64,000 nt of DNA from a bacterium (lineage in GTDB: Bacteria > Bacteroidota > Ignavibacteria > Ignavibacteriales > Ignavibacteriaceae): positions 109,858-173,857 of the forward strand of contig JADJWC010000002.1 in the NCBI GenBank assembly GCA_016716565.1, read 5' to 3'. A program made the position numbers and the translations under genes. Every line of letters begins with the position of its first letter. Within the stretch, counting starts at the first letter, position 1. Under the pieces are notes generated by a model. The model saw only the letters and a list, made by a program, of their open reading frames with translations. It was not told where the DNA came from and did not search any database. This document shows positions 1,729 to 34,899 of the stretch, in pieces.

Positions 1729-1915
1729 TTTTCTACAGACGTGATAATTGACGTTGAGAAACAGACTAATACTATTTTAAATAGTTAAAGTTCCCGTCAG
1801 CAATAAGTAGAAAAATTTACCCTCCGTTGGAATTCTAAAGTCGGGAACTTTCTTCACATCATTTCAGTGAAAAAGCCTGTTAAATAAACTTCATCAACAC
1901 ATTCGGAGAACTGAA

Positions 1916-3172: not shown

Positions 3173-5377
3173 ATGAAAGTACAAAAATATTTTTACGTTA
3201 CGAGTTTTCTAATCCTTTTAATCAGTAACTCACTCTTCGCAGATGGCTTAATCATCATTCCTCGGCCTGAGCCTTTGCCTACGCCTTATCCTTTGGAAGT
3301 TCTCTACCACCATGTTGATGTTAAAATAAACGGGAATGTAGCTGAAACTTATATCGACCAGGAATTCCACAATCCATCTGATGTAATGCTCGAAGGGTAC
3401 TACATTTTTCCGATTCCAAAAAATGCTGTAATTAAAGATTTCAGTATGGAAATAAACGGCAAAATGGTTTCAGCTGAACTACTCGATGCAAATAAAGCAC
3501 GACAAATCTATGAAGACATAGTCAGGCAAATAAAAGATCCTGCACTTCTCGAATACTCTGGACAAGGAATTTTTAAAGTAAGGATTTTTCCGATAGAACC
3601 GAGAAGCAATAAAAAAGTCAGCATTAGTTACCGGGAAGTTTTAGATTCCGATAATGATATTTATGAATACATCTATCCGCTAAACACAGAAAAATTTTCA
3701 GCAAAACCAGTGAGGAATGTTTCAGTAAAAGTCGATTTGAAAACGAATAACAAAATAAAAACCATCTATTCCCCTACTCACCCCATTGATGTTGTTCATA
3801 AAGACGCCAAACATGCAATCGTTTCATTCGAAGAAGAAAATACAAAACCGGATATCGATTTTAAATTTTATTTCAGCACGAACAATGATGAGATTGGAAT
3901 TTCTCAACTTACTTATAAATCAACTGATGAAGACGGCTACTTTTTCCTGACAGCTTCACCATCATTTAATATTGATGAGACTAAAATAGATGCAAAAGAT
4001 ATAACATTTGTTCTGGATGTGTCAGGAAGCATGGTCGGTGACAAAATGAAGCAGGCAAAACAAGCTCTTCTTTATTGTGTAAATAATTTAAATAAAGGTG
4101 ATGGTTTTAATATTATCAGATTTTCAACTGAAGCATATTCTCTATTTGGTAAGATCGAAACAGCAAGTGAATCCAATATCAAAAAAGCAGAAAAGTTTAT
4201 TGAAGAATTGAATACAGTCGGAGGAACGAATATCGAAGAAGCTCTTGGTCTTGCTTTAAAAGAAAAACCAGCAAATAACCGAACTCACCTGATAGTTTTT
4301 ATCACGGACGGCAAGCCGACTATTGGCGAAACAAATGATGATATGCTGATAAAGAAACTAGCTGACTCAAATATCAAAAACACTCGCATCTTTACATTTG
4401 GAATCGGGAATGATCTTAACACTCACCTGCTTGATAAAATTACTGAAAAAACAAAAGCCTATCGAACTTATATTTCAGAAGATGAAGACATTGAGATAAA
4501 AATTTCTAGCTTCTATGATAAAGTACAATCGCCTGTCCTCACAAATCTTTCTCTGTCATTCAGCGGAAACGTAAAAATGTTTCAGACATATCCGAAGGAT
4601 TTGCCTGATTTGTTCAAAGGTTCAAGCATACTTGTATTTGGGCGATACTCTGGTGATGGAGATTCAAAAATAACTTTGACAGGCTCGATAAAGGGTGAAA
4701 GGAGATCTTTCATATTAAACACTAATTTTTCTGATGATAATGACGAGTATGATTTCATCCCTCCTTTGTGGGCTTCAAGGAGAATTGGTTATCTGCTTGA
4801 TCAAATTCGACTTAATGGAGAAAACAAAGAATTAGTTGATGAAATAACTCACCTTGCAAGAGAGCACGGTATTGTTACTCCTTACACAAGTTATTTGATA
4901 ATGGAAGATGAGGAAATCAGGATCAGAAGAAATGAATTAACTAATCATTTCCAGACACTTCCTCCTGCTCCTGAGTTAAGAAGAAATACTTCAGAAGACT
5001 TTGATGCAATGAAAATTGAATCCGGTGCATACAGCATCAGAGCCAGTGAAGAAGTCCAGGAATTAAACAAGGCAAGTAATTACGCTGAGACAAAACAAGG
5101 ATCCGGAAGATTGAAGTACAAAGATGACTCTGGTTATGATAGAAACTTAGTCCAACAGGTAAGAAACATCCAGGGAAGAGCCATTTATCAAAGTGGAAAG
5201 TTTTGGGTTGATTCAGAATTACAAAATCAAAAAGCTAAAAATCAGAAACGAATTCAATTCAATTCAACTGAATACTTCAAGCTGCTGAAAGACAAGCCTG
5301 CGACTTCTCAATTCCTCGCACTTGGACAAAATGTTAGGTTTTATTATGACAATACTTTTTATGAGATATATGAGTGA
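3173..5377 (+). CDS. VIT domain + vWA domain protein (inter-alpha-trypsin-inhibitor-like / BatB-like)
   Basis: Signal peptide. N-terminal VIT-like region. vWA MIDAS motif FVLDVSGSM. Length 734 aa. Confidence 0.7.
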   Translation: MKVQKYFYVTSFLILLISNSLFADGLIIIPRPEPLPTPYPLEVLYHHVDVKINGNVAETYIDQEFHNPSDVMLEGYYIFPIPKNAVIKDFSMEINGKMVSAELLDANKARQIYEDIVRQIKDPALLEYSGQGIFKVRIFPIEPRSNKKVSISYREVLDSDNDIYEYIYPLNTEKFSAKPVRNVSVKVDLKTNNKIKTIYSPTHPIDVVHKDAKHAIVSFEEENTKPDIDFKFYFSTNNDEIGISQLTYKSTDEDGYFFLTASPSFNIDETKIDAKDITFVLDVSGSMVGDKMKQAKQALLYCVNNLNKGDGFNIIRFSTEAYSLFGKIETASESNIKKAEKFIEELNTVGGTNIEEALGLALKEKPANNRTHLIVFITDGKPTIGETNDDMLIKKLADSNIKNTRIFTFGIGNDLNTHLLDKITEKTKAYRTYISEDEDIEIKISSFYDKVQSPVLTNLSLSFSGNVKMFQTYPKDLPDLFKGSSILVFGRYSGDGDSKITLTGSIKGERRSFILNTNFSDDNDEYDFIPPLWASRRIGYLLDQIRLNGENKELVDEITHLAREHGIVTPYTSYLIMEDEEIRIRRNELTNHFQTLPPAPELRRNTSEDFDAMKIESGAYSIRASEEVQELNKASNYAETKQGSGRLKYKDDSGYDRNLVQQVRNIQGRAIYQSGKFWVDSELQNQKAKNQKRIQFNSTEYFKLLKDKPATSQFLALGQNVRFYYDNTFYEIYE

Positions 5378-27851: not shown

Positions 27852-29108
27852 CTATCCTTTAACAACACCGAGTGGTCTTAGTTTAACGATAGGTTTTATA
27901 AGATCTAATTCAGATTGAATTACCTCATCAATGTTTTTATAGGCAAGAGGTGACTCACCAAGATCAAACAATTCCCCACCATTTATTTTCTTTCCAAACT
28001 TTTTGAGTTTACCCCATCGATCATATACAACGTCACCCATTGCTTTATCGCATTCTTTTGCAGTAAGATTTCTGCAAGCATCCATTCTTCCCATTTTTCT
28101 GCCGGCACCGTGAGAACAGGATTGAAAAGATTCTTCATTACCTAATCCTTCAACAATGTAAGAAGAAGTCCCCATCGAACCGGGAATTATTCCCTTCTCA
28201 CCTTTCTTAGCAGATGTTGCACCTTTCCGATGAATCCAAACGGATTTTTCAAAATGATTTTCCAATGCTGCGTAATTATGATGGATATTTGTTTCTTCAA
28301 GAAAATTTACATCACCAAGATTTATTAGAATGGCTTGTTTAAATTCTTCCATCATTAATCTTCTGTTTTCTCTTGCATATTCCAGAGCAAAATTCATATC
28401 TCTAATGTAATCATTTCCTTCATCCATCTCTGTTCTAAAAAATGCAAGATCTTTATCCGGTAGTTCATCATTGTATTTATCATTTATTTCCTGAGCAAGT
28501 TTATGATAATATGAGGCGATCCTATTACCAATATTTCTTGAACCTGAATGTAGCATCAGCCAGAGGTATCCATCCTGTGAAATTTGCATTTCAATAAAAT
28601 GATTTCCGCCGCCTAAAGTTCCAAGATTTTTGAATGCTAATGTCCAGGTAGCTTTATCCAACCATGCTGGCAATTTTGGATTCTTGAAGTCATCAACTTC
28701 TTCACCAATACCAAGAGTTTTTAAGTAAGCAGGAAACCCATCCCATGAGTGTGGATGTTTGTGTGCATTTCCTTCACCGACCGGTACATTTGCTTTTATA
28801 TCATTAAGGATTTTTCTAATTAAAGATTTATCAGTTAAATCATTTGCAGGAAAATTGGTTTTAACTGCACCCATTCCACATCCAATATCAACACCGACTG
28901 CATTCGGTATGATTGCATTTTCGGTTGCAATAACTCCACCAATCGGCATTCCATATCCGACATGAGCATCGGGCATTAACGCAATATGATTTAAAGTAAC
29001 AGGATGATTAGCAAGATTTTCAGCCTGTTCAAGTGCACCTAGTTCAAGTGTTTCGCACCAGGATTTTATCGGTATTTTAAGATTTTCATCTTCTTTGATC
29101 CATTTCAT
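27852..29108 (-). CDS. rtcB: RNA-splicing ligase RtcB (3'-phosphate/5'-OH RNA ligase)
   Basis: GGGNHFIEMQ, HSGSRNIGN, SCSHGAGRKMGR motifs. Start taken at MKWIKEDE (ATG 29106-29108, RBS AGAGGA). The ORF-track extension to 29192 overlaps tRNA-Pro and is rejected. Confidence 0.9.
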   Translation of the reverse strand: MKWIKEDENLKIPIKSWCETLELGALEQAENLANHPVTLNHIALMPDAHVGYGMPIGGVIATENAIIPNAVGVDIGCGMGAVKTNFPANDLTDKSLIRKILNDIKANVPVGEGNAHKHPHSWDGFPAYLKTLGIGEEVDDFKNPKLPAWLDKATWTLAFKNLGTLGGGNHFIEMQISQDGYLWLMLHSGSRNIGNRIASYYHKLAQEINDKYNDELPDKDLAFFRTEMDEGNDYIRDMNFALEYARENRRLMMEEFKQAILINLGDVNFLEETNIHHNYAALENHFEKSVWIHRKGATSAKKGEKGIIPGSMGTSSYIVEGLGNEESFQSCSHGAGRKMGRMDACRNLTAKECDKAMGDVVYDRWGKLKKFGKKINGGELFDLGESPLAYKNIDEVIQSELDLIKPIVKLRPLGVVKG

Positions 29109-29123: not shown

Positions 29124-29198
29124 TACTTTATTGTCTGTGTGGTAGGACTCGAACCTACATTTTCCCGGCTCCAAACCGGCACGGATAACCAATTCCCG
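29124..29198 (-). tRNA. tRNA-Pro (anticodon UGG)
   Basis: Hand-folded cloverleaf. Acceptor CTGTGTG/CACACAG. T-arm GTAGG-TTCGAGT-CCTAC. Anticodon loop TTTGGAG. Confidence 0.7.
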
Positions 29199-29253
29199 TC
29201 ACACACAGATATAATTTAGTAAACGTATTATCTATTAAAAATTCCAATTATAA

Positions 29254-29324
29254 AATTTTATTGCGTGACGTGTGGGATTTGAACCCCGACTCCTGATAGA
29301 CAGTCAGGTGTGTTTCCGTTACAC
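29254..29324 (-). tRNA. tRNA-Asp (anticodon GUC)
   Basis: Anticodon arm CCTGA-CTGTCTA-TCAGG. T-loop TTCAAAT. Acceptor/T-stem register is ambiguous by hand. Confidence 0.6.
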
Positions 29325-29354
29325 TACACATCACTTTTATAGATATTCTATTAA

Positions 29355-29428
29355 TATTTAATTGTCCCACCGATAGGATTCGAACCTACATCATTTCGGT
29401 TAAAAGCCGAAAGCATTGCTCCTTTATG
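29355..29428 (-). tRNA. tRNA-Lys (anticodon UUU)
   Basis: D-arm GCAT-AAAGGAGCA-ATGC. Anticodon arm TTCGG-CTTTTAA-CCGAA. T-loop TTCGAAT. Confidence 0.8.
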
Positions 29429-29442
29429 CTACGGTGGAATAA

Positions 29443-29515
29443 TGTCTTTAAGTACTCTCTGCAGGAATCGAACCCACATCTAACTGCTTAGAAGACAGCT
29501 GCATTATCCTTTATG
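29443..29515 (-). tRNA. tRNA-Arg (anticodon UCU)
   Basis: Acceptor GCTCTCT/AGAGAGT. Anticodon loop CTTCTAA. T-loop TTCGATT. Confidence 0.7.
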
Positions 29516-29520
29516 CTAAG

Positions 29521-29592
29521 AGAGCGTTGGAATCGTTATAAGGATTTGAACCTTAATCCCCCGACTCGTAAGCGGGTATCTTTTCCATTAGA
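29521..29592 (-). tRNA. tRNA-Arg (anticodon ACG)
   Basis: Acceptor GTCGTTA/TAACGAT. Anticodon loop TTACGAG. T-arm TAAGG-TTCAAAT-CCTTA. Confidence 0.7.
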
Positions 29593-29595
29593 CGA

Positions 29596-29668
29596 TAACG
29601 ACTTGAGCCAACGCAAGGATTCGAACCCTGTTCTCCGGTTTACAAAACCGGTGCATCAACCTGTAATG
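29596..29668 (-). tRNA. tRNA-Thr (anticodon UGU), aberrant acceptor stem
   Basis: Anticodon arm CCGGT-TTTGTAA-ACCGG is perfect. Acceptor 5' GCCTTCG vs 3' CGTTGGC gives two adjacent U:U mismatches. The 5' end sits inside the perfect palindrome AATGCCTTCGAAGCATT. Confidence 0.55.
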
Positions 29669-29673
29669 CTTCG

Positions 29674-29757
29674 AAGGCATTCGTACAAGTAGAAGGATTC
29701 GAACCTTCAAGCCCTCAAGGGCAGTAGTTTCTAAGACTACCGTGTATACCAATTCCA
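29674..29757 (-). tRNA. tRNA-Leu (anticodon UAG), class II with long variable arm
   Basis: Anticodon arm GTAGT-CTTAGAA-ACTAC. Variable hairpin GCCC-TTGA-GGGC. T-arm GAAGG-TTCGAAT-CCTTC. Confidence 0.8.
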
Positions 29758-29763
29758 CCATAC

Positions 29764-29835
29764 TTGCATTCAGGGTGTGAGCTAAGATTTGAACTTAGTC
29801 CTATTGGGTCACAGCCAATTATGCTGCCATTACAC
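29764..29835 (-). tRNA. tRNA-His (anticodon GUG) with G-1; acceptor has two internal mismatches
   Basis: Anticodon arm ATTGG-CTGTGAC-CCAAT. Extra 5' G pairs with C73. Acceptor 5' GTGTTTG vs 3' CTCACAC gives U:C and U:U mismatches. Confidence 0.6.
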
Positions 29836-29908
29836 CACAAACACCATAATAATGTCGTTAAAGGAAATGAATACCTATCTTAAAAATTTTTAAATCAATC
29901 TATCTAAG

Positions 29909-29982
29909 AACGATAAAGTCCTACGGGTAGGATTCGCACCCACTATCTCCCGGATATAAGCCGGGTGCATTTACTAATTATG
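29909..29982 (-). tRNA. tRNA-Ile (anticodon UAU), atypical: no GG in D-loop, T-loop TGCGAAT
   Basis: Acceptor CCTACGG/CCGTAGG is perfect. Anticodon arm CCCGG-CTTATAT-CCGGG. D-loop AATTAGTAA. Confidence 0.6.
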
Positions 29983-29983
29983 C

Positions 29984-30055
29984 TTCCGTAGGGTAGCGGG
30001 TATTGGATTCGAACCAATGACCTTCAGCTTATGAAACTGATGAGCTGCCGCTGCT
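29984..30055 (-). tRNA. tRNA-Met or tRNA-Ile2 (anticodon CAU; elongator type)
   Basis: Acceptor GGCGGGT/ACCCGCT. D-arm GAGC-AGCGGCA-GCTC. Anticodon loop TTCATAA. Lacks the initiator features (C1:A72 mismatch, GGG/CCC anticodon stem). Confidence 0.75.
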
Positions 30056-30065
30056 CAAACCCGCC

Positions 30066-30140
30066 AAATGATTAGTGGAAAGGGTAGGAATCGAACCCAC
30101 GCAGTCAACGGGCTTCAACCGCTTGCTCTACCTGCTGAGC
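30066..30140 (-). tRNA. tRNA-Phe (anticodon GAA)
   Basis: Acceptor GGAAAGG/CCTTTCC. D-arm GCTC-AGCAGGTAGA-GC. Anticodon loop TTGAAGC. Confidence 0.85.
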
Positions 30141-30147
30141 TACCTTT

Positions 30148-30219
30148 CCATATTTTGCAGTCCCGGCAGGATTTGAACCTACATCTTTGGGTTCAAAGCC
30201 CAATGTGCTTACCATTGCA
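30148..30219 (-). tRNA. tRNA-Gln (anticodon UUG)
   Basis: Anticodon arm TTGGG-CTTTGAA-CCCAA. D-arm GTGC-AATGGTAA-GCAC. T-loop TTCAAAT. Confidence 0.8.
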
Positions 30220-30223
30220 CCAC

Positions 30224-30299
30224 AGAACTATTGAGTCGGTAAAGGGAGTTGAACCCTCACTTCAAGTTTGGAAGACTTACGTGCTGGTTCCGTTAAACA
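30224..30299 (-). tRNA. tRNA-Gly (anticodon UCC), enlarged D-loop
   Basis: Acceptor GTCGGTA/TACCGAC is perfect. Anticodon loop CTTCCAA. D-region is 21 nt. Confidence 0.7.
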
Positions 30300-30322
30300 C
30301 TATACCGACGGATTGAAAAATT

Positions 30323-30393
30323 GATTCTCTGCTGAACAGGCAGGACTCGAACCTGCATCATTCCGGTTAACAGCCGGGCGCTTCACCATTGAG
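30323..30393 (-). tRNA. tRNA-Asn (anticodon GUU)
   Basis: Acceptor TGAACAG/CTGTTCA is perfect. Anticodon loop CTGTTAA. T-arm GCAGG-TTCGAGT-CCTGC. Confidence 0.75.
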
Positions 30394-30414
30394 CTACTGT
30401 TCAATTAATTTTAT

Positions 30415-31446
30415 TCAAGCTTTATCACCAATTCTTATCTGATATTGCTTCTCATTAATTTTATCGACGCTGATATTTATTGCTAAAAATTTTTTCACAA
30501 CCTCAATGATTGTCATTGTATGTAAAGTTGGTTCAGTCGTAATAAAACTTCCGCCACCAGCAAGTGCCATCGGGATTATCAATTGATCAGCCAGATATTT
30601 ATACACCGGAACATCAGCGTCCACATATTCAGAATATTCTCTTAATACATCATCGATTACATTTTTCAACTTATAATTTTTTCTTCCGAATCCGGTAAAG
30701 GTTTCTGTTGAATTATCATTTTCATCGATGAGAATGATAACATTTCCCGGTCCTGGCGAATCAACCATTTTTGCTATGCAGTTTACTTCATTCCAACCCA
30801 GCTTTTTTTGAATGATCTTCATCTCACTTTTACCAATGCTTTCCGGAATTAGTGAGGAGTATGCAATTGCTTTCCTGTTCAGCTGGGATCCTTTTTCAAT
30901 GATTTCGATCTGGTTCAGTTCTTTAACAGGTTTAACATTTACATCAATCTTTCCACCTCCTACCGGAAAGAATCCGAATTTCCCGATATTAATATTTACT
31001 ACAGGTCCCATTTTTCTCAACTGGTTAAAAAAAGAATAATTCAGAAAATCTACTGGCGGAGAAAATTCATTATGGGTTCCACCGCCTAAACTAATGTTCG
31101 ATTCACCATTCGCAAGCATAAGAACGGGAACAACAGTTTGAAGCACAAGAGTTGTACTTCCTGCAGTTCCAATATCAAAATTGTAATTACCGGATTTAAT
31201 TTTTGCGGGGTCAAAGTATAATTTCAAAGAACTAATTTCAGCACCTCGAACTCGAGCATCACAAATTTCTGCGGCAGCTTTTACTGCAGTGAGATGTTGC
31301 CTCATTAAGCCGGGCTTTTTTCTTCCGGCTCTTATATTCTTAATAACTACCGGAAATTGAGTATACATTGATAAGGAAAGAGACGACCTGAGAATCTGGC
31401 CGCCTCCTTCTCCGAATGAACCATCTATTTCAATGAGCTTTTTCAT
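30415..31446 (-). CDS. rtcA: RNA 3'-terminal phosphate cyclase RtcA
   Basis: N-terminal IDGSFGEGGGQILRSSLSLS...IRAGRKKPGLMRQHL and C-terminal LADQLIIPMALAGGG match the RtcA family end to end. Confidence 0.88.
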   Translation of the reverse strand: MKKLIEIDGSFGEGGGQILRSSLSLSMYTQFPVVIKNIRAGRKKPGLMRQHLTAVKAAAEICDARVRGAEISSLKLYFDPAKIKSGNYNFDIGTAGSTTLVLQTVVPVLMLANGESNISLGGGTHNEFSPPVDFLNYSFFNQLRKMGPVVNINIGKFGFFPVGGGKIDVNVKPVKELNQIEIIEKGSQLNRKAIAYSSLIPESIGKSEMKIIQKKLGWNEVNCIAKMVDSPGPGNVIILIDENDNSTETFTGFGRKNYKLKNVIDDVLREYSEYVDADVPVYKYLADQLIIPMALAGGGSFITTEPTLHTMTIIEVVKKFLAINISVDKINEKQYQIRIGDKA

Positions 31447-31448
31447 AC

Positions 31449-32552
31449 TTAAAGTAAGTTAACAATTTTGTCAGTTAACCCTTTATCACCAAGCATAATT
31501 TTCAGGTCAGTTCTTGCAGCGATCTTTTCAAGAACTTCCAGCTCTTTGAGCTTCATAAGTACTGGATTGCTCTCGAGCATTTTAGCAGTATTAGCCTGGT
31601 TTCTCATTGCGGCAGTCTCCTCTCTTCTGGAGATGAGATTTGCCTCTGCTTCTTTTTTAGCAAGGATAACTTTGTTCAGTATCTCTTTCATATCACCAGG
31701 AAGAATTATATCCCTGATTCCATGACTCAGAACCTCAATACCGTACTTAATCATTCTTGCTGCTAGTCTTTCCTCAAGCTCTTTCGCAACAGAGTCCTTT
31801 TCAGCAAGTATCGCTTCAAGTTCTCTTGTTCCGATTACTTCTCTAAGAACAAGCTGAGCTTCTCTGTAGAGTGCCTGAGTAGAATCTTCAACCATTGATA
31901 CAGATTTGTATGCATCTACAATTCTGTAGTTAACAAGGGTATTTAGTCTTAAAGAAACTTTATCAGCAGTCATAATTTCTTGTCCGGAAATATCGCTTGA
32001 CTTTACTCTCAGATCTACCTGATAAAGTTTTACTTTGGAAATACCTATCCAGAATGCATATCTGCCTGGTTTGAGATTCCCTATGAAGTTTCCATTCTCG
32101 AAGTACAGACCAATATGGTTGTCTTCTACAATGAATTCATTTAGTACAGCTTTCGATGCACCTGCATCCATAATTATATCCAGTTTTTCATGGACAAATT
32201 GTGGGCTTTTAACATCGATCACTTCCACTAAAACTTCACGACCAACTTTCCAAAGAGCATAAATACCAGAGTAAAGAATTCTGTCAAATCTTCCGTCAAT
32301 CCAAATGACTGCACGTTGATTATCTTTTAGATCAATTACTTCTAATTCATCTTTATTAATTTTATCGGACTTGATTATTGATTCGAGTTCCTTATGGACA
32401 AGCCACGCCTCTTTTACAGAAACAATATCAAGTGCTTCATCTTTAAATGGATCTGTAAACCAGTATGAACCTTCGTTGAGTATTTCAACAAATTGTTCAT
32501 CCACAAAGTACAGTCCTCTTTCGTGTGCAAGGATTCTTCTTTTACCAAACAT
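31449..32552 (-). CDS. cytoplasmic SPFH/band-7 (slipin-like) domain protein with an unrecognised ~170-aa N-terminal domain
   Basis: C-terminal half matches stomatin/HflC-like SPFH (IRDIILPGDMKE, AEANLISRREETAAMRNQANTAKML). No TM segment. Stop is 3 nt before the rtcA start. Confidence 0.6.
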   Translation of the reverse strand: MFGKRRILAHERGLYFVDEQFVEILNEGSYWFTDPFKDEALDIVSVKEAWLVHKELESIIKSDKINKDELEVIDLKDNQRAVIWIDGRFDRILYSGIYALWKVGREVLVEVIDVKSPQFVHEKLDIIMDAGASKAVLNEFIVEDNHIGLYFENGNFIGNLKPGRYAFWIGISKVKLYQVDLRVKSSDISGQEIMTADKVSLRLNTLVNYRIVDAYKSVSMVEDSTQALYREAQLVLREVIGTRELEAILAEKDSVAKELEERLAARMIKYGIEVLSHGIRDIILPGDMKEILNKVILAKKEAEANLISRREETAAMRNQANTAKMLESNPVLMKLKELEVLEKIAARTDLKIMLGDKGLTDKIVNLL

Positions 32553-32639
32553 GACTTATCTCCTTTTTATTTTTGTTAATCAGTTAATTAAAAGGGCTAA
32601 TTGAAGAAAGACAACTAACTCAACACATTTCTTCTGCGG

Positions 32640-32813
32640 AGCGTTACTTAAGCAATTCAAAGTTGTATCGTATCTGCAAACTCAAATTCAACAACACAAC
32701 TTTTAAAGAGCGGTATCCGCACGCTGCAAGGCAGAATACTAATGCTGCAAACAGAATTATGCCTCCCCAATAATTTCTGTTTGCTGCTAAATCGCTCATC
32801 CTTCCTCAAAAAG
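32640..32813 (-). CDS. small ORF (57 aa) with a hydrophobic core, between the tRNA-like gene and the SPFH gene
   Basis: MSDLAANRNYWGGIILFAALVFCLAACGYRSLKVVLLNLSLQIRYNFELLK*. Preceded by GAGGAAGG. Below the ORF-track size cutoff. Speculative. Confidence 0.2.
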
Positions 32814-32838
32814 CCAAAGAACAGTTCACCTTTACAGG

Positions 32839-32914
32839 GTGCATGAGCGGGAATCGAACCCGCGACCTATAGATCATTAGTCTATTGCTCTTCCAATTGA
32901 GCTATCATTGTGCA
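32839..32914 (-). ncRNA. aberrant tRNA-like RNA (tRNA mimic or pseudogene). Canonical D- and T-arms, acceptor stem with a 3-nt bulge, anticodon loop CUAAUGA (formally AAU with G37).
   Basis: D-arm TAGCTCAATTGGAAGAGCA. T-arm GCGGG-TTCGATT-CCCGC. 3' TCATGCA-C. 5' TGCA[CAA]TGA. Sits ~100 nt downstream of a TGGCAC -24 element. Confidence 0.5.
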
Positions 32915-33020
32915 GTTTCAACATCGTCTTTAGAACCCGCAACCGGAACATTAAATGATAATTGATTACTCAAACCAGATAATGCCGACCGGTCAAATAT
33001 CAATTCTGCATAAATTATAA

Positions 33021-33037
33021 GCCAATGAGTGTGCCAG
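33021..33037 (-). promoter_or_regulatory. candidate sigma54 (-24/-12) promoter for the minus-strand rtc unit; imperfect -12 element
   Basis: Minus-strand TGGCAC-ACTCA-TTGGC (consensus TGGCAC-N5-TTGCA). Divergent from rtcR, as at the E. coli rtcBA-rtcR locus. A GACCGGTC palindrome lies 25 nt downstream. Confidence 0.35.
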
Positions 33038-33163: not shown

Positions 33164-33346
33164 ATGAAGAACATACTTTTCAGTTTGTTGGGAACAACAT
33201 TAGATAAATCTTTCAAGCAAGATAGATGGGAAAGATGGCGGCCATCCGTTGCAATTTGTCAACACGAGGATTTAATAATCGATAAATACCATTTAATTTA
33301 TCCGTCAAACCATCTTCGCCTTGCAGAGAATTATAGAGGATATTAA
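33164..33346 (+). CDS. rtcR: RtcR N-terminal segment (start of CARF domain), frame-shifted relative to the rest of rtcR
   Basis: MKNILFSLLGTTLDKSFKQDRWERWRPSVAICQHEDLIIDKYHLIY matches the E. coli RtcR N-terminus (GTVLD...QRWSKWRPTLCLCQQESLVIDRLELLH). Confidence 0.8.
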   Translation: MKNILFSLLGTTLDKSFKQDRWERWRPSVAICQHEDLIIDKYHLIYPSNHLRLAENYRGY

Positions 33347-34751
33347 AATTGTATCTCCTGAAACAGAGGTAATTCCACATGAAATTGATTTTAAAGATCC
33401 ATGGGATTTTGAAGAAGTGTACACTGGTCTTCTTGATTTCCTCGAGCACTTTGATTTTCATAAAGTGGAGGATCGATATCTTTTCAATATTACTACCGGT
33501 ACCCACGTTGCTCAAATATGTATTTACCTTCTAACTGAATCACGAAGATTTCCAGGTAATATTATACAAACATCTCCTGCTCACGGAAATGCTGCAGGAA
33601 CTTATTCTATCATAGATTTAGATTTATCGAAGTATGATAAAATAGCAGCACGATTTGCGAAAGAAATAAAAGATGATATCGCATTTCTAAAATCCGGGAT
33701 TGAAACAAAAAATAAAAAGTTTAATGAACTTATTGATAGAATAGAATTAGTCGCCTTAAGAACTAAGGATCCAATTTTGCTGACCGGTCCGACTGGAGCT
33801 GGAAAATCCTTCCTTGCAAGAAGAATTTATGAACTTAAAAAGTTGAAAGCTTCCGTCAAAGGTCAATTTGTTGAAATAGACTGCGGAACAATTCGCGGCG
33901 ATGCAGCTATGTCCGCTTTGTTTGGGCACAAGAAAGGTGCATTCACTGGTGCAATCAGCGACAGACCTGGTTTGTTAAAAACTGCTGATAAAGGAATTGT
34001 TTTTCTCGATGAGATTGGCGAACTCGGCCTAGACGAGCAAGTAATGCTTTTAAGAGCGATAGAAGATAAAAAGTTTTTTAGTGTGGGTGCAGACAAAGAA
34101 TCAACAAGTGATTTTCAATTGATCTGTGGAACGAACAGAAATCTTCAGCAAAGAGTAAAAGATGGATTGTTTAGAGAAGATCTACTTGCAAGAATAAACC
34201 TTTGGACATTCAATTTGCCGGGATTAAAAGATCGTCCTGAAGATATCGAACCAAATCTCGATTATGAATTAAACCGGTATGCAGATAAAACAGGTGATGT
34301 AGTGCGATTCAACAAAGAAGCACGAGATGCATTCCTGAATTTTGCAGTTTCAAAAGATGCAAAATGGCTAGCTAACTTCAGAGATTTGAATGGTGCAATC
34401 ATCAGGTTATGCACACTTGCACTTGGAGGAAGGATTACACTGGACATTCTTGAAGAAGAAATTAAAAGATTAAAATCATTATGGAAGACAGAAAAAATTG
34501 AATCTGAGGATAGGTTGATAAATAATTTTAGGCATATAATAGACATAACAAGAATCGATTTGTTTGAACAAATACAGATTGAGGGTGTTTTAAAAGTCTG
34601 TCGAGAATCAAAAAGTCTATCTGATGCAGGAAGAAAACTGTTTGCCATTTCACGCCTATCAAAGGCATCTTCAAATGATAGTGATAGATTAAAAAAATTT
34701 TTAGTCAAGTACGGATTGACCTGGGAAATGACCCAAAACAATTATATCTGA
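33321..34751 (+). CDS. rtcR: RtcR, CARF-domain sigma54-dependent transcriptional activator of the rtc operon (the frame continues upstream to ~33286 as FIRQTIFALQRIIEDI...)
   Basis: SPETEV...DFKDPWDFEEVY...TGTHVAQICIYLL (CARF). Walker A GPTGAGKS. GAFTGA. ESKSLSDAGRKLF...LTWE C-terminus. Colinear with E. coli RtcR throughout. Confidence 0.88.
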   Translation: MQRIIEDIKIVSPETEVIPHEIDFKDPWDFEEVYTGLLDFLEHFDFHKVEDRYLFNITTGTHVAQICIYLLTESRRFPGNIIQTSPAHGNAAGTYSIIDLDLSKYDKIAARFAKEIKDDIAFLKSGIETKNKKFNELIDRIELVALRTKDPILLTGPTGAGKSFLARRIYELKKLKASVKGQFVEIDCGTIRGDAAMSALFGHKKGAFTGAISDRPGLLKTADKGIVFLDEIGELGLDEQVMLLRAIEDKKFFSVGADKESTSDFQLICGTNRNLQQRVKDGLFREDLLARINLWTFNLPGLKDRPEDIEPNLDYELNRYADKTGDVVRFNKEARDAFLNFAVSKDAKWLANFRDLNGAIIRLCTLALGGRITLDILEEEIKRLKSLWKTEKIESEDRLINNFRHIIDITRIDLFEQIQIEGVLKVCRESKSLSDAGRKLFAISRLSKASSNDSDRLKKFLVKYGLTWEMTQNNYI

Positions 34752-34785: not shown

Positions 34786-34826
34786 TTAAAAAAACCCTCA
34801 GAATTTTATCATCTTGAGGGTTTTTG
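34786..34826. terminator. bidirectional rho-independent terminator (A-run, hairpin ccctcag...cttgaggg, T-run)
   Basis: Lies between the rtcR stop and the 3' end of the convergent tRNA-Thr. Confidence 0.55.
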
Positions 34827-34899
34827 AGCTGGTGAACGGATTCGAACCGCCGACCGGCTGATTACAAATCAGCTGCTCTACCAGCTGAGCTACACCAGC
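34827..34899 (-). tRNA. tRNA-Thr (anticodon UGU), canonical
   Basis: Acceptor GCTGGTG/CACCAGC is perfect. D-arm GCTC-AGCTGGTAGA-GC. Anticodon arm GCTGA-TTTGTAA-TCAGC. T-loop TTCGAAT. Confidence 0.85.

Follow-up and report, generated by a model that had tools for sequence, protein, structure and literature searches.

Atypical tRNA genes with conserved acceptor-stem mismatches in a tRNA array located between rtcA and rtcB of an Ignavibacteria-like genome

We analyzed a 64,000-nucleotide (nt) stretch of DNA from an Ignavibacteriaceae bacterium (contig JADJWC010000002.1, positions 109,858 to 173,857; the window in what follows), in which an array of 14 tRNA genes fills the gap between rtcA and rtcB, two genes of an RNA-repair operon. 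Three members of this array, tRNA-Thr(UGU), tRNA-His(GUG) and tRNA-Ile(UAU), have unusual acceptor stems or elbows. We consider it probable, with moderate confidence, that they are functional, structurally idiosyncratic members of an accessory operon of the long tRNA array (L-array) type, inserted in an rtcA-rtcB operon controlled by RtcR and σ54. The pyrimidine·pyrimidine (Y·Y) mismatches of the first two (pairs 4-6:67-69) and the elbow of the third appear, from the comparison of related loci, to be long-lived traits under constraint.

According to ARAGORN the window contains 15 tRNA genes, every one of them encoded on the minus strand: the array (29133-30403) and a lone tRNA-Thr(UGU) (34826-34899). 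The array genes share one orientation and are packed within 1271 bp; the spacers between them measure 1-73 nt, and as no unit is repeated the array is non-periodic. All 14 exceeded the gathering score of Rfam family RF00005 (29 bits), which is the threshold for a tRNA call. CCA is not encoded in most of them, nor in the housekeeping tRNA-Thr.

A preliminary description of this DNA, made from the letters alone, had taken the array for an accessory rather than a core set and had pointed to a second, canonical tRNA-Thr(UGU) at 34827-34899. Both points were supported: the duplicate is a redundant isoacceptor about 5 kb from the array, the array is absent from the operon of more distant relatives, and its members score 33.8-70.5 bits in Infernal versus 70.1 bits for the lone gene. 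The existence of the array genes described there was confirmed, with two corrections: the coding strand is the minus strand, and the true positions are 9-10 nt higher than first given.

Structure and conservation of the atypical tRNAs

The acceptor stem of array tRNA-Thr opposes 5′ GCCUUCG to 3′ CGUUGGC, which produces the tandem mismatches U4·U69 and U5·U68 (drawn as t.t/t.t by ARAGORN), and that of tRNA-His contains U5·C68 and U6·U67. In the Infernal alignments to RF00005, the 'v' marks of non-standard pairs fell on exactly these positions in both genes, with a posterior probability of 1.0. The same two U:U mismatches in tRNA-Thr and the U:C and U:U mismatches in tRNA-His had been proposed from hand-drawn folds; automated folding left the acceptor stems mismatched, and the hand-drawn register was thus correct. 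These four are the only non-standard acceptor pairs of the array, the other 12 genes having Watson-Crick or G·U pairs only. The elbows of tRNA-Thr and tRNA-His are normal, and tRNA-Thr retains G1-C72 and C2-G71.

Related loci (designated by L numbers) were collected in three ways. An RtcA search of GTDB genomes yielded L001, a contig of 3.4 kb with 90% identity, and L002, a metagenome-assembled genome (MAG) of the Ignavibacteriaceae with 76% identity (contig CAWDGX010000023.1). A DNA pattern derived from tRNA-Leu(UAG), which avoids conditioning on the acceptor stems of tRNA-Thr and tRNA-His, gave four metagenome contigs (L006-L009), and RtcB homologues led to L011-L015, L021, L022 and a further contig that lacks DNA. 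No match was obtained when metagenome contigs were scanned with an RtcA profile. L001 (CAZIPE010000025.1), labelled 'Candidatus Saccharibacteria', carries an SPFH-rtcA-array segment whose RtcA is 90% identical to that of the window; it is probably misbinned, because the closest long relative is an Ignavibacteriaceae MAG.

The mismatch features of tRNA-Thr recur in 9 loci and those of tRNA-His in 12 loci (related arrays in independent assemblies). Of six distinct tRNA-Thr sequences, five have U·U at pair 5:68 and that of L022 has C·U, so that this pair is always Y·Y; pair 4:69 shows U·U or U·C, except for U-A in a single lineage. In the case of tRNA-His, pair 5:68 is U·C only in the window and U·U in all others (Y·Y in 9/9 distinct sequences), and pair 6:67 is U·U in 9/9. 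Pair 5:68 of the tRNA-Ala genes present in related arrays is always U·U or U·C.

We pooled the acceptor pairs of the first seven loci (108 tRNAs, which are phylogenetically non-independent, though four tRNA families are involved). Non-standard pairs were concentrated at 5:68 (18/108) and 6:67 (13), versus 0-4 at pairs 1-4, and 33 of the 35 found at positions 4-6 were Y·Y. A G·U pair occupies position 1:72 in 32/108 array tRNAs.

The 5′ end of tRNA-Thr had also been described as part of a perfect 17-bp palindrome, AATGCCTTCGAAGCATT. This element is imperfect, since its reverse complement is AATGCTTCGAAGGCATT; it consists of 5-bp arms around TTCGAA plus one extra C, and it is not conserved in L006 and L009.

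The tRNA-Ile(UAU) gene was found as previously described: an anticodon loop CUUAUAU, a D-loop AAUUAGUAA without GG, a T-loop UGCGAAU in which G55 replaces U55, and stems that are all paired. These features recur in 9 loci from independent assemblies, and the gene is present in every array spanning its slot; Rfam recovered copies missed by ARAGORN in L002 (11517-11590) and L007 (2775-2848). The conserved elbow (G18 G19; U54 U55 C56) is lacking in 7/7 distinct orthologues, all of which have U54-G55-C56 together with a D-loop containing a single G, so that the usual tertiary contact G18·Ψ55 has been altered jointly on its two sides. The body of the molecule is of the Ile type, as its acceptor is common to array tRNA-Ile(GAU) (UCUACGG/CCGUAGG|A in L002).

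In RNAfold predictions, the minimum free energy (MFE) structure of tRNA-Ile(UAU) was a cloverleaf (z = -2.90), as was that of tRNA-Thr, which includes a 2x2 internal loop (z = -2.57); this is a weak test, as the canonical housekeeping tRNA-Thr also lacks a cloverleaf MFE.

Only a 1-nt spacer separates tRNA-Ile(UAU) from a CAU tRNA, in agreement with their reported adjacency. The latter has a conserved G1·U72, and by eye neither a C1xA72 mismatch nor three consecutive G-C pairs of the anticodon stem were seen. Because these two initiator hallmarks are missing, it would not be an initiator, and may be an elongator tRNA-Met or a lysidine-dependent tRNA-Ile2. AUA accounts for 28% of the Ile codons in the long open reading frames (ORFs) of the window, and a stand-alone spare set would therefore need an AUA decoder. 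No ORF with an SGGxDS PP-loop, as expected of TilS, was found within the 64-kb window. The anticodon has switched on two backbones of this array family: the Ile backbone carries UAU or GAU, and the Pro backbone carries UGG in the window and AGG (A34) in L002 (12935-13010) and L009 (2992-3067).

Several observations indicate that the unusual genes are maintained. The array tRNAs of the window and L002 are 91% identical, versus 40% and 45% at the four-fold degenerate sites of the flanking rtcB and rtcA, a difference that indicates strong purifying selection on the array tRNA genes. Compensatory changes were seen in tRNA-Thr at 6:67 (C-G to U-A in L006 and L009) and 27:43 (C-G to U-A), in tRNA-Ile(UAU) at 4:69 (A-U to G-C in L011-L013), and also in tRNA-Met, tRNA-Gln and other array tRNAs. 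The pairs cited were checked by eye; some cases in D-stems and tRNA-Ile(GAU) were dropped as differing ARAGORN registers.

The elements recognized by the threonyl and histidyl synthetases, as known from Escherichia coli, are kept in all orthologues: G1-C72, C2-G71, G35 and U36 in tRNA-Thr, and G-1 and C73 in tRNA-His, where both were encoded in 12/12 loci. The G3·U70 pair of tRNA-Ala is likewise kept in related arrays. The suggestion that some members are non-functional was not supported by this comparison: all covariance scores pass the threshold, which counts against a pseudogene reading of tRNA-Thr, tRNA-His and tRNA-Ile(UAU), and the purifying selection, the compensatory changes and the retained identity elements point in the same direction.

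Sequences related to several array members occur in phages. The array tRNA-Leu is ~80% identical to tRNA-Leu of T4-like Aeromonas phages, and the Met-Ile junction is 76% identical to the Met-Ile pair of Gordonia phage Phendrix, which carries an AUA-reading tRNA-Ile. Over 63 nt, array tRNA-Ile(UAU) shares 81% identity with t14, a tRNA-Ile of Bacteroides phage crAss001 (L020); as t14 has a normal UUC T-loop and a GG D-loop, the elbow of the array gene is derived. The tandem U4·U69/U5·U68 of array tRNA-Thr is present in two crAss001 genes, tRNA-Thr(UGU) (GGGUUUG/CAUUCCC) and tRNA-Asn(GUU) (GGGUUGU/ACUUCCC), and 8 of the 23 tRNAs of this phage have G1·U72. Its tRNA cluster includes DpsA and HNH genes, which are reported neighbours of cyanobacterial L-arrays (PMC8421152). 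Against phages, blastn gave a single match for array tRNA-Thr (a Pseudomonas phage, 81.5% over 54 nt) and none for tRNA-His, and IMG/VR yielded no near-identical copy of the cores of array tRNA-Thr, tRNA-His or tRNA-Ile(UAU).

The array and the phage tRNA clusters thus seem to be fed from a common pool. A phage genome was ruled out as the source of the window itself, since megablast against phages matched tRNA-Leu only and the surrounding genes are ordinary chromosomal ones. A mobile origin, as proposed earlier, is possible: several members do resemble phage tRNAs, but no integrase or transposase lies nearby, flanking synteny is conserved and the array is now stably fixed in the chromosome.

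Two further array members deserve mention. In all orthologues of tRNA-Asp, two conserved non-standard pairs at the base of the T-stem leave it with effectively 3 bp. The tRNA-Arg(ACG) of the window has a derived C·U pair and the anticodon loop UUACGAG (CUACGAA elsewhere), and because of these changes it may be decaying in this lineage. We found nothing recognizable as remnants of lost tRNA genes in the larger AT-rich spacers of the window (73, 54, 29 and 21 nt), where 15 of 16 alignment scores were within the range of shuffled sequences and the single exception scored 12 against a shuffle maximum of 11.

The Rtc operon and the history of the array

The genes around the array form an Rtc operon, which the preliminary description had missed. 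Pfam identified the components of such an operon: RtcB, RtcA and a divergently encoded RtcR with a CARF-type N-terminal domain and a σ54-interacting AAA+ domain. The array occupies the rtcA-rtcB gap with only two short junctions, 11 nt from the rtcA stop codon to tRNA-Asn, the first tRNA, and 24 nt from tRNA-Pro to the ATG of rtcB, which is directly preceded by AAGAGGA. The coordinates of all features are collected in Table 1.

Table 1. Features of the array and its operon, with orthologous and phage features referred to in the text (tRNA genes in order of transcription)
Feature	Position	Strand	Remarks
rtcR	33164-34751	+	Divergent from operon; Pfam RtcR 6.1e-51 (CARF-type), Sigma54_activat 9.9e-48 (σ54-interaction AAA+)
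σ54-like -24/-12 element TGGCAC-ACTCA-TTGGC	33021-33036	-	Read by eye and from conservation
Leader, ~470 nt	32553-33020	-	Conserved in 4 loci
tRNA-like module in leader	32843-32908	-	Rfam tRNA 56.1 bits, model positions 4-67 only
SPFH/Band-7 protein	31449-32552	-	First operon gene; Pfam Band_7 7e-30
rtcA (RNA 3′-terminal phosphate cyclase)	30415-31446	-	Pfam RTC 5.9e-78
tRNA-Asn GUU	30332-30403	-	ARAGORN; first
tRNA-Gly UCC	30234-30309	-	ARAGORN; 2nd
tRNA-Gln UUG	30158-30229	-	ARAGORN; 3rd; 70.5 bits
tRNA-Phe GAA	30076-30149	-	ARAGORN; 4th
tRNA-Met/CAU	29994-30065	-	ARAGORN; 5th
tRNA-Ile UAU	29919-29992	-	ARAGORN; 6th; 58.4 bits
tRNA-His GUG	29774-29845	-	ARAGORN; 7th; includes encoded G-1; 52.3 bits
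tRNA-Leu UAG	29684-29767	-	ARAGORN; 8th
tRNA-Thr UGU	29606-29678	-	ARAGORN; 9th; 47.3 bits
tRNA-Arg ACG	29531-29602	-	ARAGORN; 10th; 47.1 bits
tRNA-Arg UCU	29453-29525	-	ARAGORN; 11th
tRNA-Lys UUU	29365-29438	-	ARAGORN; 12th
tRNA-Asp GUC	29265-29333	-	ARAGORN; 13th; 44.9 bits
tRNA-Pro UGG	29134-29206	-	ARAGORN; 14th (last); 33.8 bits, lowest of array
rtcB (RNA 3′-P/5′-OH ligase)	27852-29108	-	Pfam RtcB 2.2e-107
Canonical tRNA-Thr UGU, presumably housekeeping	34827-34899	-	70.1 bits; acceptor fully paired; outside operon; comparator
Leader orthologues including promoter	window 32553-33036; L002 8415-8895; L011 4150-4641; L016 2100-2628	- (window)	
Leader module orthologues	L002 8551-8614; L011 4294-4356; L016 2248-2320		54.7, 51.9 and 50 bits
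crAss001 (L020) tRNA-Thr and tRNA-Asn	3684-3755 and 1756-1828		

The layout RtcR, leader, SPFH, RtcA, array, RtcB was found wherever the contig was long enough: in full in L002, L011, L012 and the P0006 contig, and as the array followed by RtcB in L009, L013-L015 and L022. The SPFH gene occupies the same position in L002, L011, L012, L016 and the P0006 contig; Band-7 genes reportedly occur together with RtcB systems. In every examined locus whose RtcB is at least 77% identical to that of the window, tRNA genes lie directly upstream of rtcB, and their order is shared by all related loci but L021, which retains a remnant of only three genes.

In contrast, rtcA and rtcB abut, overlap or are at most ~30 nt apart in L016-L019 (RtcB identity 64-68%), with no tRNA between them. 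One of these loci, L016, retains RtcR, the leader with its tRNA-like module, SPFH, RtcA and RtcB. Since these loci have rtcA-rtcB without tRNAs, the array is a derived, lineage-specific insertion into a pre-existing rtcA-rtcB operon, within an Ignavibacteria-like clade.

The ancestral order, reconstructed from the longest versions, is Asn, Trp, Gly, Gln, Phe, Met, Ile(UAU), Tyr, His, Leu(UAG), Thr, Arg(ACG), followed by Arg(UCU), Leu(UAA), Leu(CAA), Lys, Ile(GAU), Ser(UGA), Val, Ala, Ser(GCU), Asp, Glu and Pro. Such a set covers 19 amino acids with about one decoder per codon box, and the 14-gene array of the window is a reduced form of it.

The leader that precedes the SPFH gene is probably a structured non-coding RNA: its mean column identity is 76% over four loci, and 23 of the 123 pairs predicted by RNAalifold show compensatory changes. 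It contains a tRNA-like module with D, anticodon-like and T arms and a defective acceptor, which was not called by ARAGORN and whose 'anticodon' loop is variable (CUAAUGA in the window, CUAGUAA and CGGUGGU in orthologues). Apart from this partial tRNA match, no Rfam family was detected in the leader, and YrlA (RF02553) gave no match at E≤1. Because the array-less L016 has it too, the tRNA-like leader is older than the array.

The upstream motif TGGCAY-N7-TTG is kept in 4/4 aligned leaders, including that of L016. A scan of the operon for σ70 promoter and terminator consensus sequences gave counts no higher than in shuffled sequences, with no terminator-like site on the minus strand inside the array.

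Elsewhere in the window, no integrase, transposase or TROVE/Rsr gene was found among the annotated ORFs (those longer than 180 aa). The other genes are ordinary chromosomal ones, encoding type IX secretion system (T9SS) sorting-domain proteins, multihaem cytochromes, an OmpA/TSP3 protein and a tricorn-like protease.

Possible function and alternative explanations

On the interpretation that we favour, tRNA damage would release 5′ tRNA fragments ending in 2′,3′-cyclic phosphate, which would activate RtcR, a step established in Salmonella, and RtcR would then fire the conserved σ54-like promoter. Leader, SPFH gene, rtcA, the 14 tRNAs and rtcB may be read as a single transcript; such readthrough is favoured because the junctions are of 11 and 24 nt only and promoter and terminator counts are at shuffle level. 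RNase P and 3′ processing would free the tRNAs, with CCA presumably added afterwards, since it is missing from most array genes. Enzymes for repair and a new, near-minimal set of decoders would in this way reach the cell together, and the UAU anticodon would provide an AUA decoder without lysidine synthesis. As for the mismatches and the G55 elbow, our preferred guess is that they alter recognition by tRNA-targeting nucleases or by turnover and quality control, with the synthetase identity elements left untouched.

Several points weigh against this interpretation. All that goes beyond the DNA sequence is inferred: that the genes are co-transcribed and respond to damage, that the tRNAs are charged and take part in translation, and what the mismatches are for. 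Mere tolerance, not selection, could account for the Y·Y mismatches, since re-pairing opposite U needs a specific transversion. Although array tRNA-Thr has strongly diverged from its housekeeping counterpart, the anticodon loop UUUGUAA is identical in both, so that evasion of anticodon-loop nucleases is not seen for this pair, the only one compared; documented nuclease evasion by phage tRNAs involves changes in the anticodon loop, not acceptor mismatches (PMC10264068, PMC11464382, PMC11555353). In RNAfold, tRNA-His was thermodynamically marginal (MFE not a cloverleaf, z = -0.45).

The control region raises similar reservations. The -12 element of the promoter reads TTGG, not the consensus TTGC, which is why a strict σ54 scan (TGGCAC-N5-TTGCW, ≤1 mismatch) did not pick up the site at 33021-33036. 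In this assembly rtcR is frameshifted near 33326-33330: in tblastn with the RtcR of L002, aa 1-55 and aa 55-526 matched different frames (segments 33164-33346 and 33321-34751, plus strand). The lesion looks like the loss of 2 nt in a GAGAGA run, and would reflect a fault in the assembly or a genuine truncation at the CARF N-terminus; if genuine, regulation in this genome may be altered or lost.

Array size also varies, with 12-14 genes in the window and L011-L013, at least 23 in L002 and 3 in L021; in several lineages the array is shrinking. Chimeric tRNA pseudogenes were found in L011 (7423-7504; 5′ part of tRNA-Thr, 3′ part of tRNA-Arg(ACG)) and L021 (793-864; 5′ part of tRNA-Val, 3′ part of tRNA-Asp), which shows that arrays lose genes through recombination between similar T-arms. 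Selection on single members is therefore not absolute.

The same variation, from 3 to at least 23 genes, together with the chimeras, is what one would expect of a decaying relic, that is, of a phage- or element-derived array that landed between rtcA and rtcB and is now eroding, with tRNA-Thr, tRNA-His and tRNA-Ile(UAU) non-functional or barely functional. The altered tRNA-Arg(ACG), array scores below that of the housekeeping tRNA-Thr, the weak in silico fold of tRNA-His and the presence of 3 pseudogenes among the 26 genes of the Anabaena array (PMC8421152) would fit as well. We nevertheless regard such a relic as unlikely, because the tRNAs have stayed ~91% identical while neutral sites are almost saturated, the three genes concerned have themselves undergone compensatory substitutions and have intact identity elements, and the mismatched nucleotides are conserved, one motif even being common to crAss001. 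Moreover, tRNA-Thr is lost or chimeric only in L011-L013, and tRNA-His and tRNA-Ile(UAU) are kept wherever a locus covers their slots.

Alternatively, the array tRNAs might act as toxin substrates or sponges, i.e. as decoys, sensors or amplifiers, whose nicked 5′ halves feed the CARF domain of RtcR and whose weak stems aid separation of the halves. The mismatches do cluster in the acceptor stem, by which a nicked tRNA is held together; the array shares its locus with RtcR, RtcA and RtcB, and a non-decoding tRNA-like module that predates it lies in the leader of the same operon. Related ideas have been raised elsewhere: a sponge for Anabaena (PMC8421152), a competitive inhibitor for YrlA (PMC7790460) and nicked tRNAs as operon regulators (PMC10159003). 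A pure decoy, however, would have no need of preserved anticodons and identity elements or of a near-complete ancestral set (19 amino acids, one decoder per box), and the mismatches are confined to 3-4 families, which makes this role improbable as the main one. A still weaker candidate, which we think very unlikely, is punctuation of the message as in mitochondria, with RNase P and RNase Z sites separating and differentially stabilizing the rtcA and rtcB messages. The exact position of the array between the two ORFs and the ribosome-binding site of rtcB right after tRNA-Pro agree with it; one tRNA would suffice for this purpose, yet 12-23 ordered genes with conserved anticodons are kept, and relatives have rtcA and rtcB abutting or overlapping. 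The chance that the mismatches are sequencing or assembly errors, or products of a wrong hand-drawn register, is negligible. The assembly is apparently of the metagenome type and the rtcR frameshift could itself be an error, but the same mismatches recur in independent assemblies from different projects, which rules out such an error for the window, and ARAGORN and Infernal agree on the register.

Returning to the functional, accessory array, we may tentatively extend it, as a possibility that is on balance doubtful, to a self-contained module for sensing, repair and replacement. RtcR would sense cleaved tRNAs, RtcA and RtcB would repair them and the array would replace them; the Y·Y mismatches and the tRNA-Ile(UAU) elbow would make poor toxin or nuclease substrates, or the weakened stems would amplify the RtcR signal, with the leader as an extra decoy or ligand. 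If this were true, structure-based nuclease evasion outside the anticodon loop would be used by a cellular stress operon and by phages.

The locus bears on two questions, the substrates of bacterial Rtc repair and the purpose of long accessory tRNA arrays. The fixation of a tRNA array between rtcA and rtcB, in an operon with an activator of the RtcR type, is independent genetic evidence joining tRNA replacement to tRNA repair: the repair of damaged tRNAs and their replacement may be switched on together, and the operon is compact enough for such a joint response to be tested. The tandem U·U shared with crAss001 points to an unrecognized feature of accessory and phage tRNAs, which possibly affects nucleases, synthetases or quality control.

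Comparison with known tRNA arrays and Rtc operons

The locus has the structural hallmarks of both an L-array and an Rtc operon. In the open-access literature (subscription journals being outside the search) we came across no report of an rtcA-rtcB operon that houses a tRNA array; the only ties between such arrays and rtcB reported there were co-regulation in Anabaena and gene neighbourhood. Three features appear to differ from what has been described: the physical fusion of the array into an RtcR-type rtcA-rtcB operon, the conserved acceptor-stem Y·Y mismatches common to the array and a crAss-like phage, and the tRNA-like module in a long conserved leader.

The 26-gene L-array of Anabaena PCC 7120 is silent until translation is impaired, is then induced, and is co-regulated with rtcB (PMC8421152; Santamaria-Gomez et al. 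2021). Of its tRNAs, 23/26 are charged and found in polysomes (PMC8421152), and the regulon of the TrcR repressor also includes a slipin/SPFH gene (PMC10272220). Like that array, the one described here is long, tight, non-periodic and encoded on one strand, duplicates at least one isoacceptor, Thr(UGU), and occurs sporadically among relatives (present at RtcB identities of at least 77%, absent from four loci at 64-68%). Both are tied to rtcB, through co-regulation in Anabaena and through neighbourhood in some cyanobacteria, and an SPFH/slipin gene accompanies both. The Anabaena array, however, has its own promoter on a megaplasmid and is subject to TrcR, whereas the present one lies inside rtcA-rtcB, putatively under RtcR and σ54. 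Unlike cyanobacterial L-arrays, it adjoins no HNH or DpsA gene, and its host is Ignavibacteria-like.

The closest counterpart of the operon is rsr-yrlBA-rtcBA of Salmonella Typhimurium (PMC7790460; PMC4201824, Chen et al. 2014), in which RtcR (CARF plus σ54 AAA+ domains) is likewise divergent from the rtcB/rtcA genes. The ligands of RtcR are 5′ halves of tRNAs that terminate in a cyclic phosphate (PMC7790460; Hughes et al. 2020). Both operons encode tRNA-like non-coding RNAs. Salmonella has Rsr (Ro60) and Y RNAs, whereas SPFH, a long leader and 14 true tRNA genes are found here; a Y-RNA operon was rejected, as neither an Rsr gene among the annotated ORFs (longer than 180 aa) nor a YrlA match in the leader was found.

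A tRNA-Ile(UAU) reportedly serves as the AUA decoder of bacteria that lack TilS, e.g. Mycoplasma mobile. The array gene resembles this type in having a UAU anticodon for AUA that is independent of lysidine; it differs in being an accessory copy beside a CAU tRNA, with the G55, GG-less elbow.

With the phage tRNA clusters of crAss001, the T4-like Aeromonas phages and Phendrix, the array shares related sequences, the presence of tRNA-Ile(UAU), frequent G1·U72 and the tandem U·U of tRNA-Thr. In contrast to these clusters, it is chromosomal and lies within a conserved host operon, with no phage genes around it.

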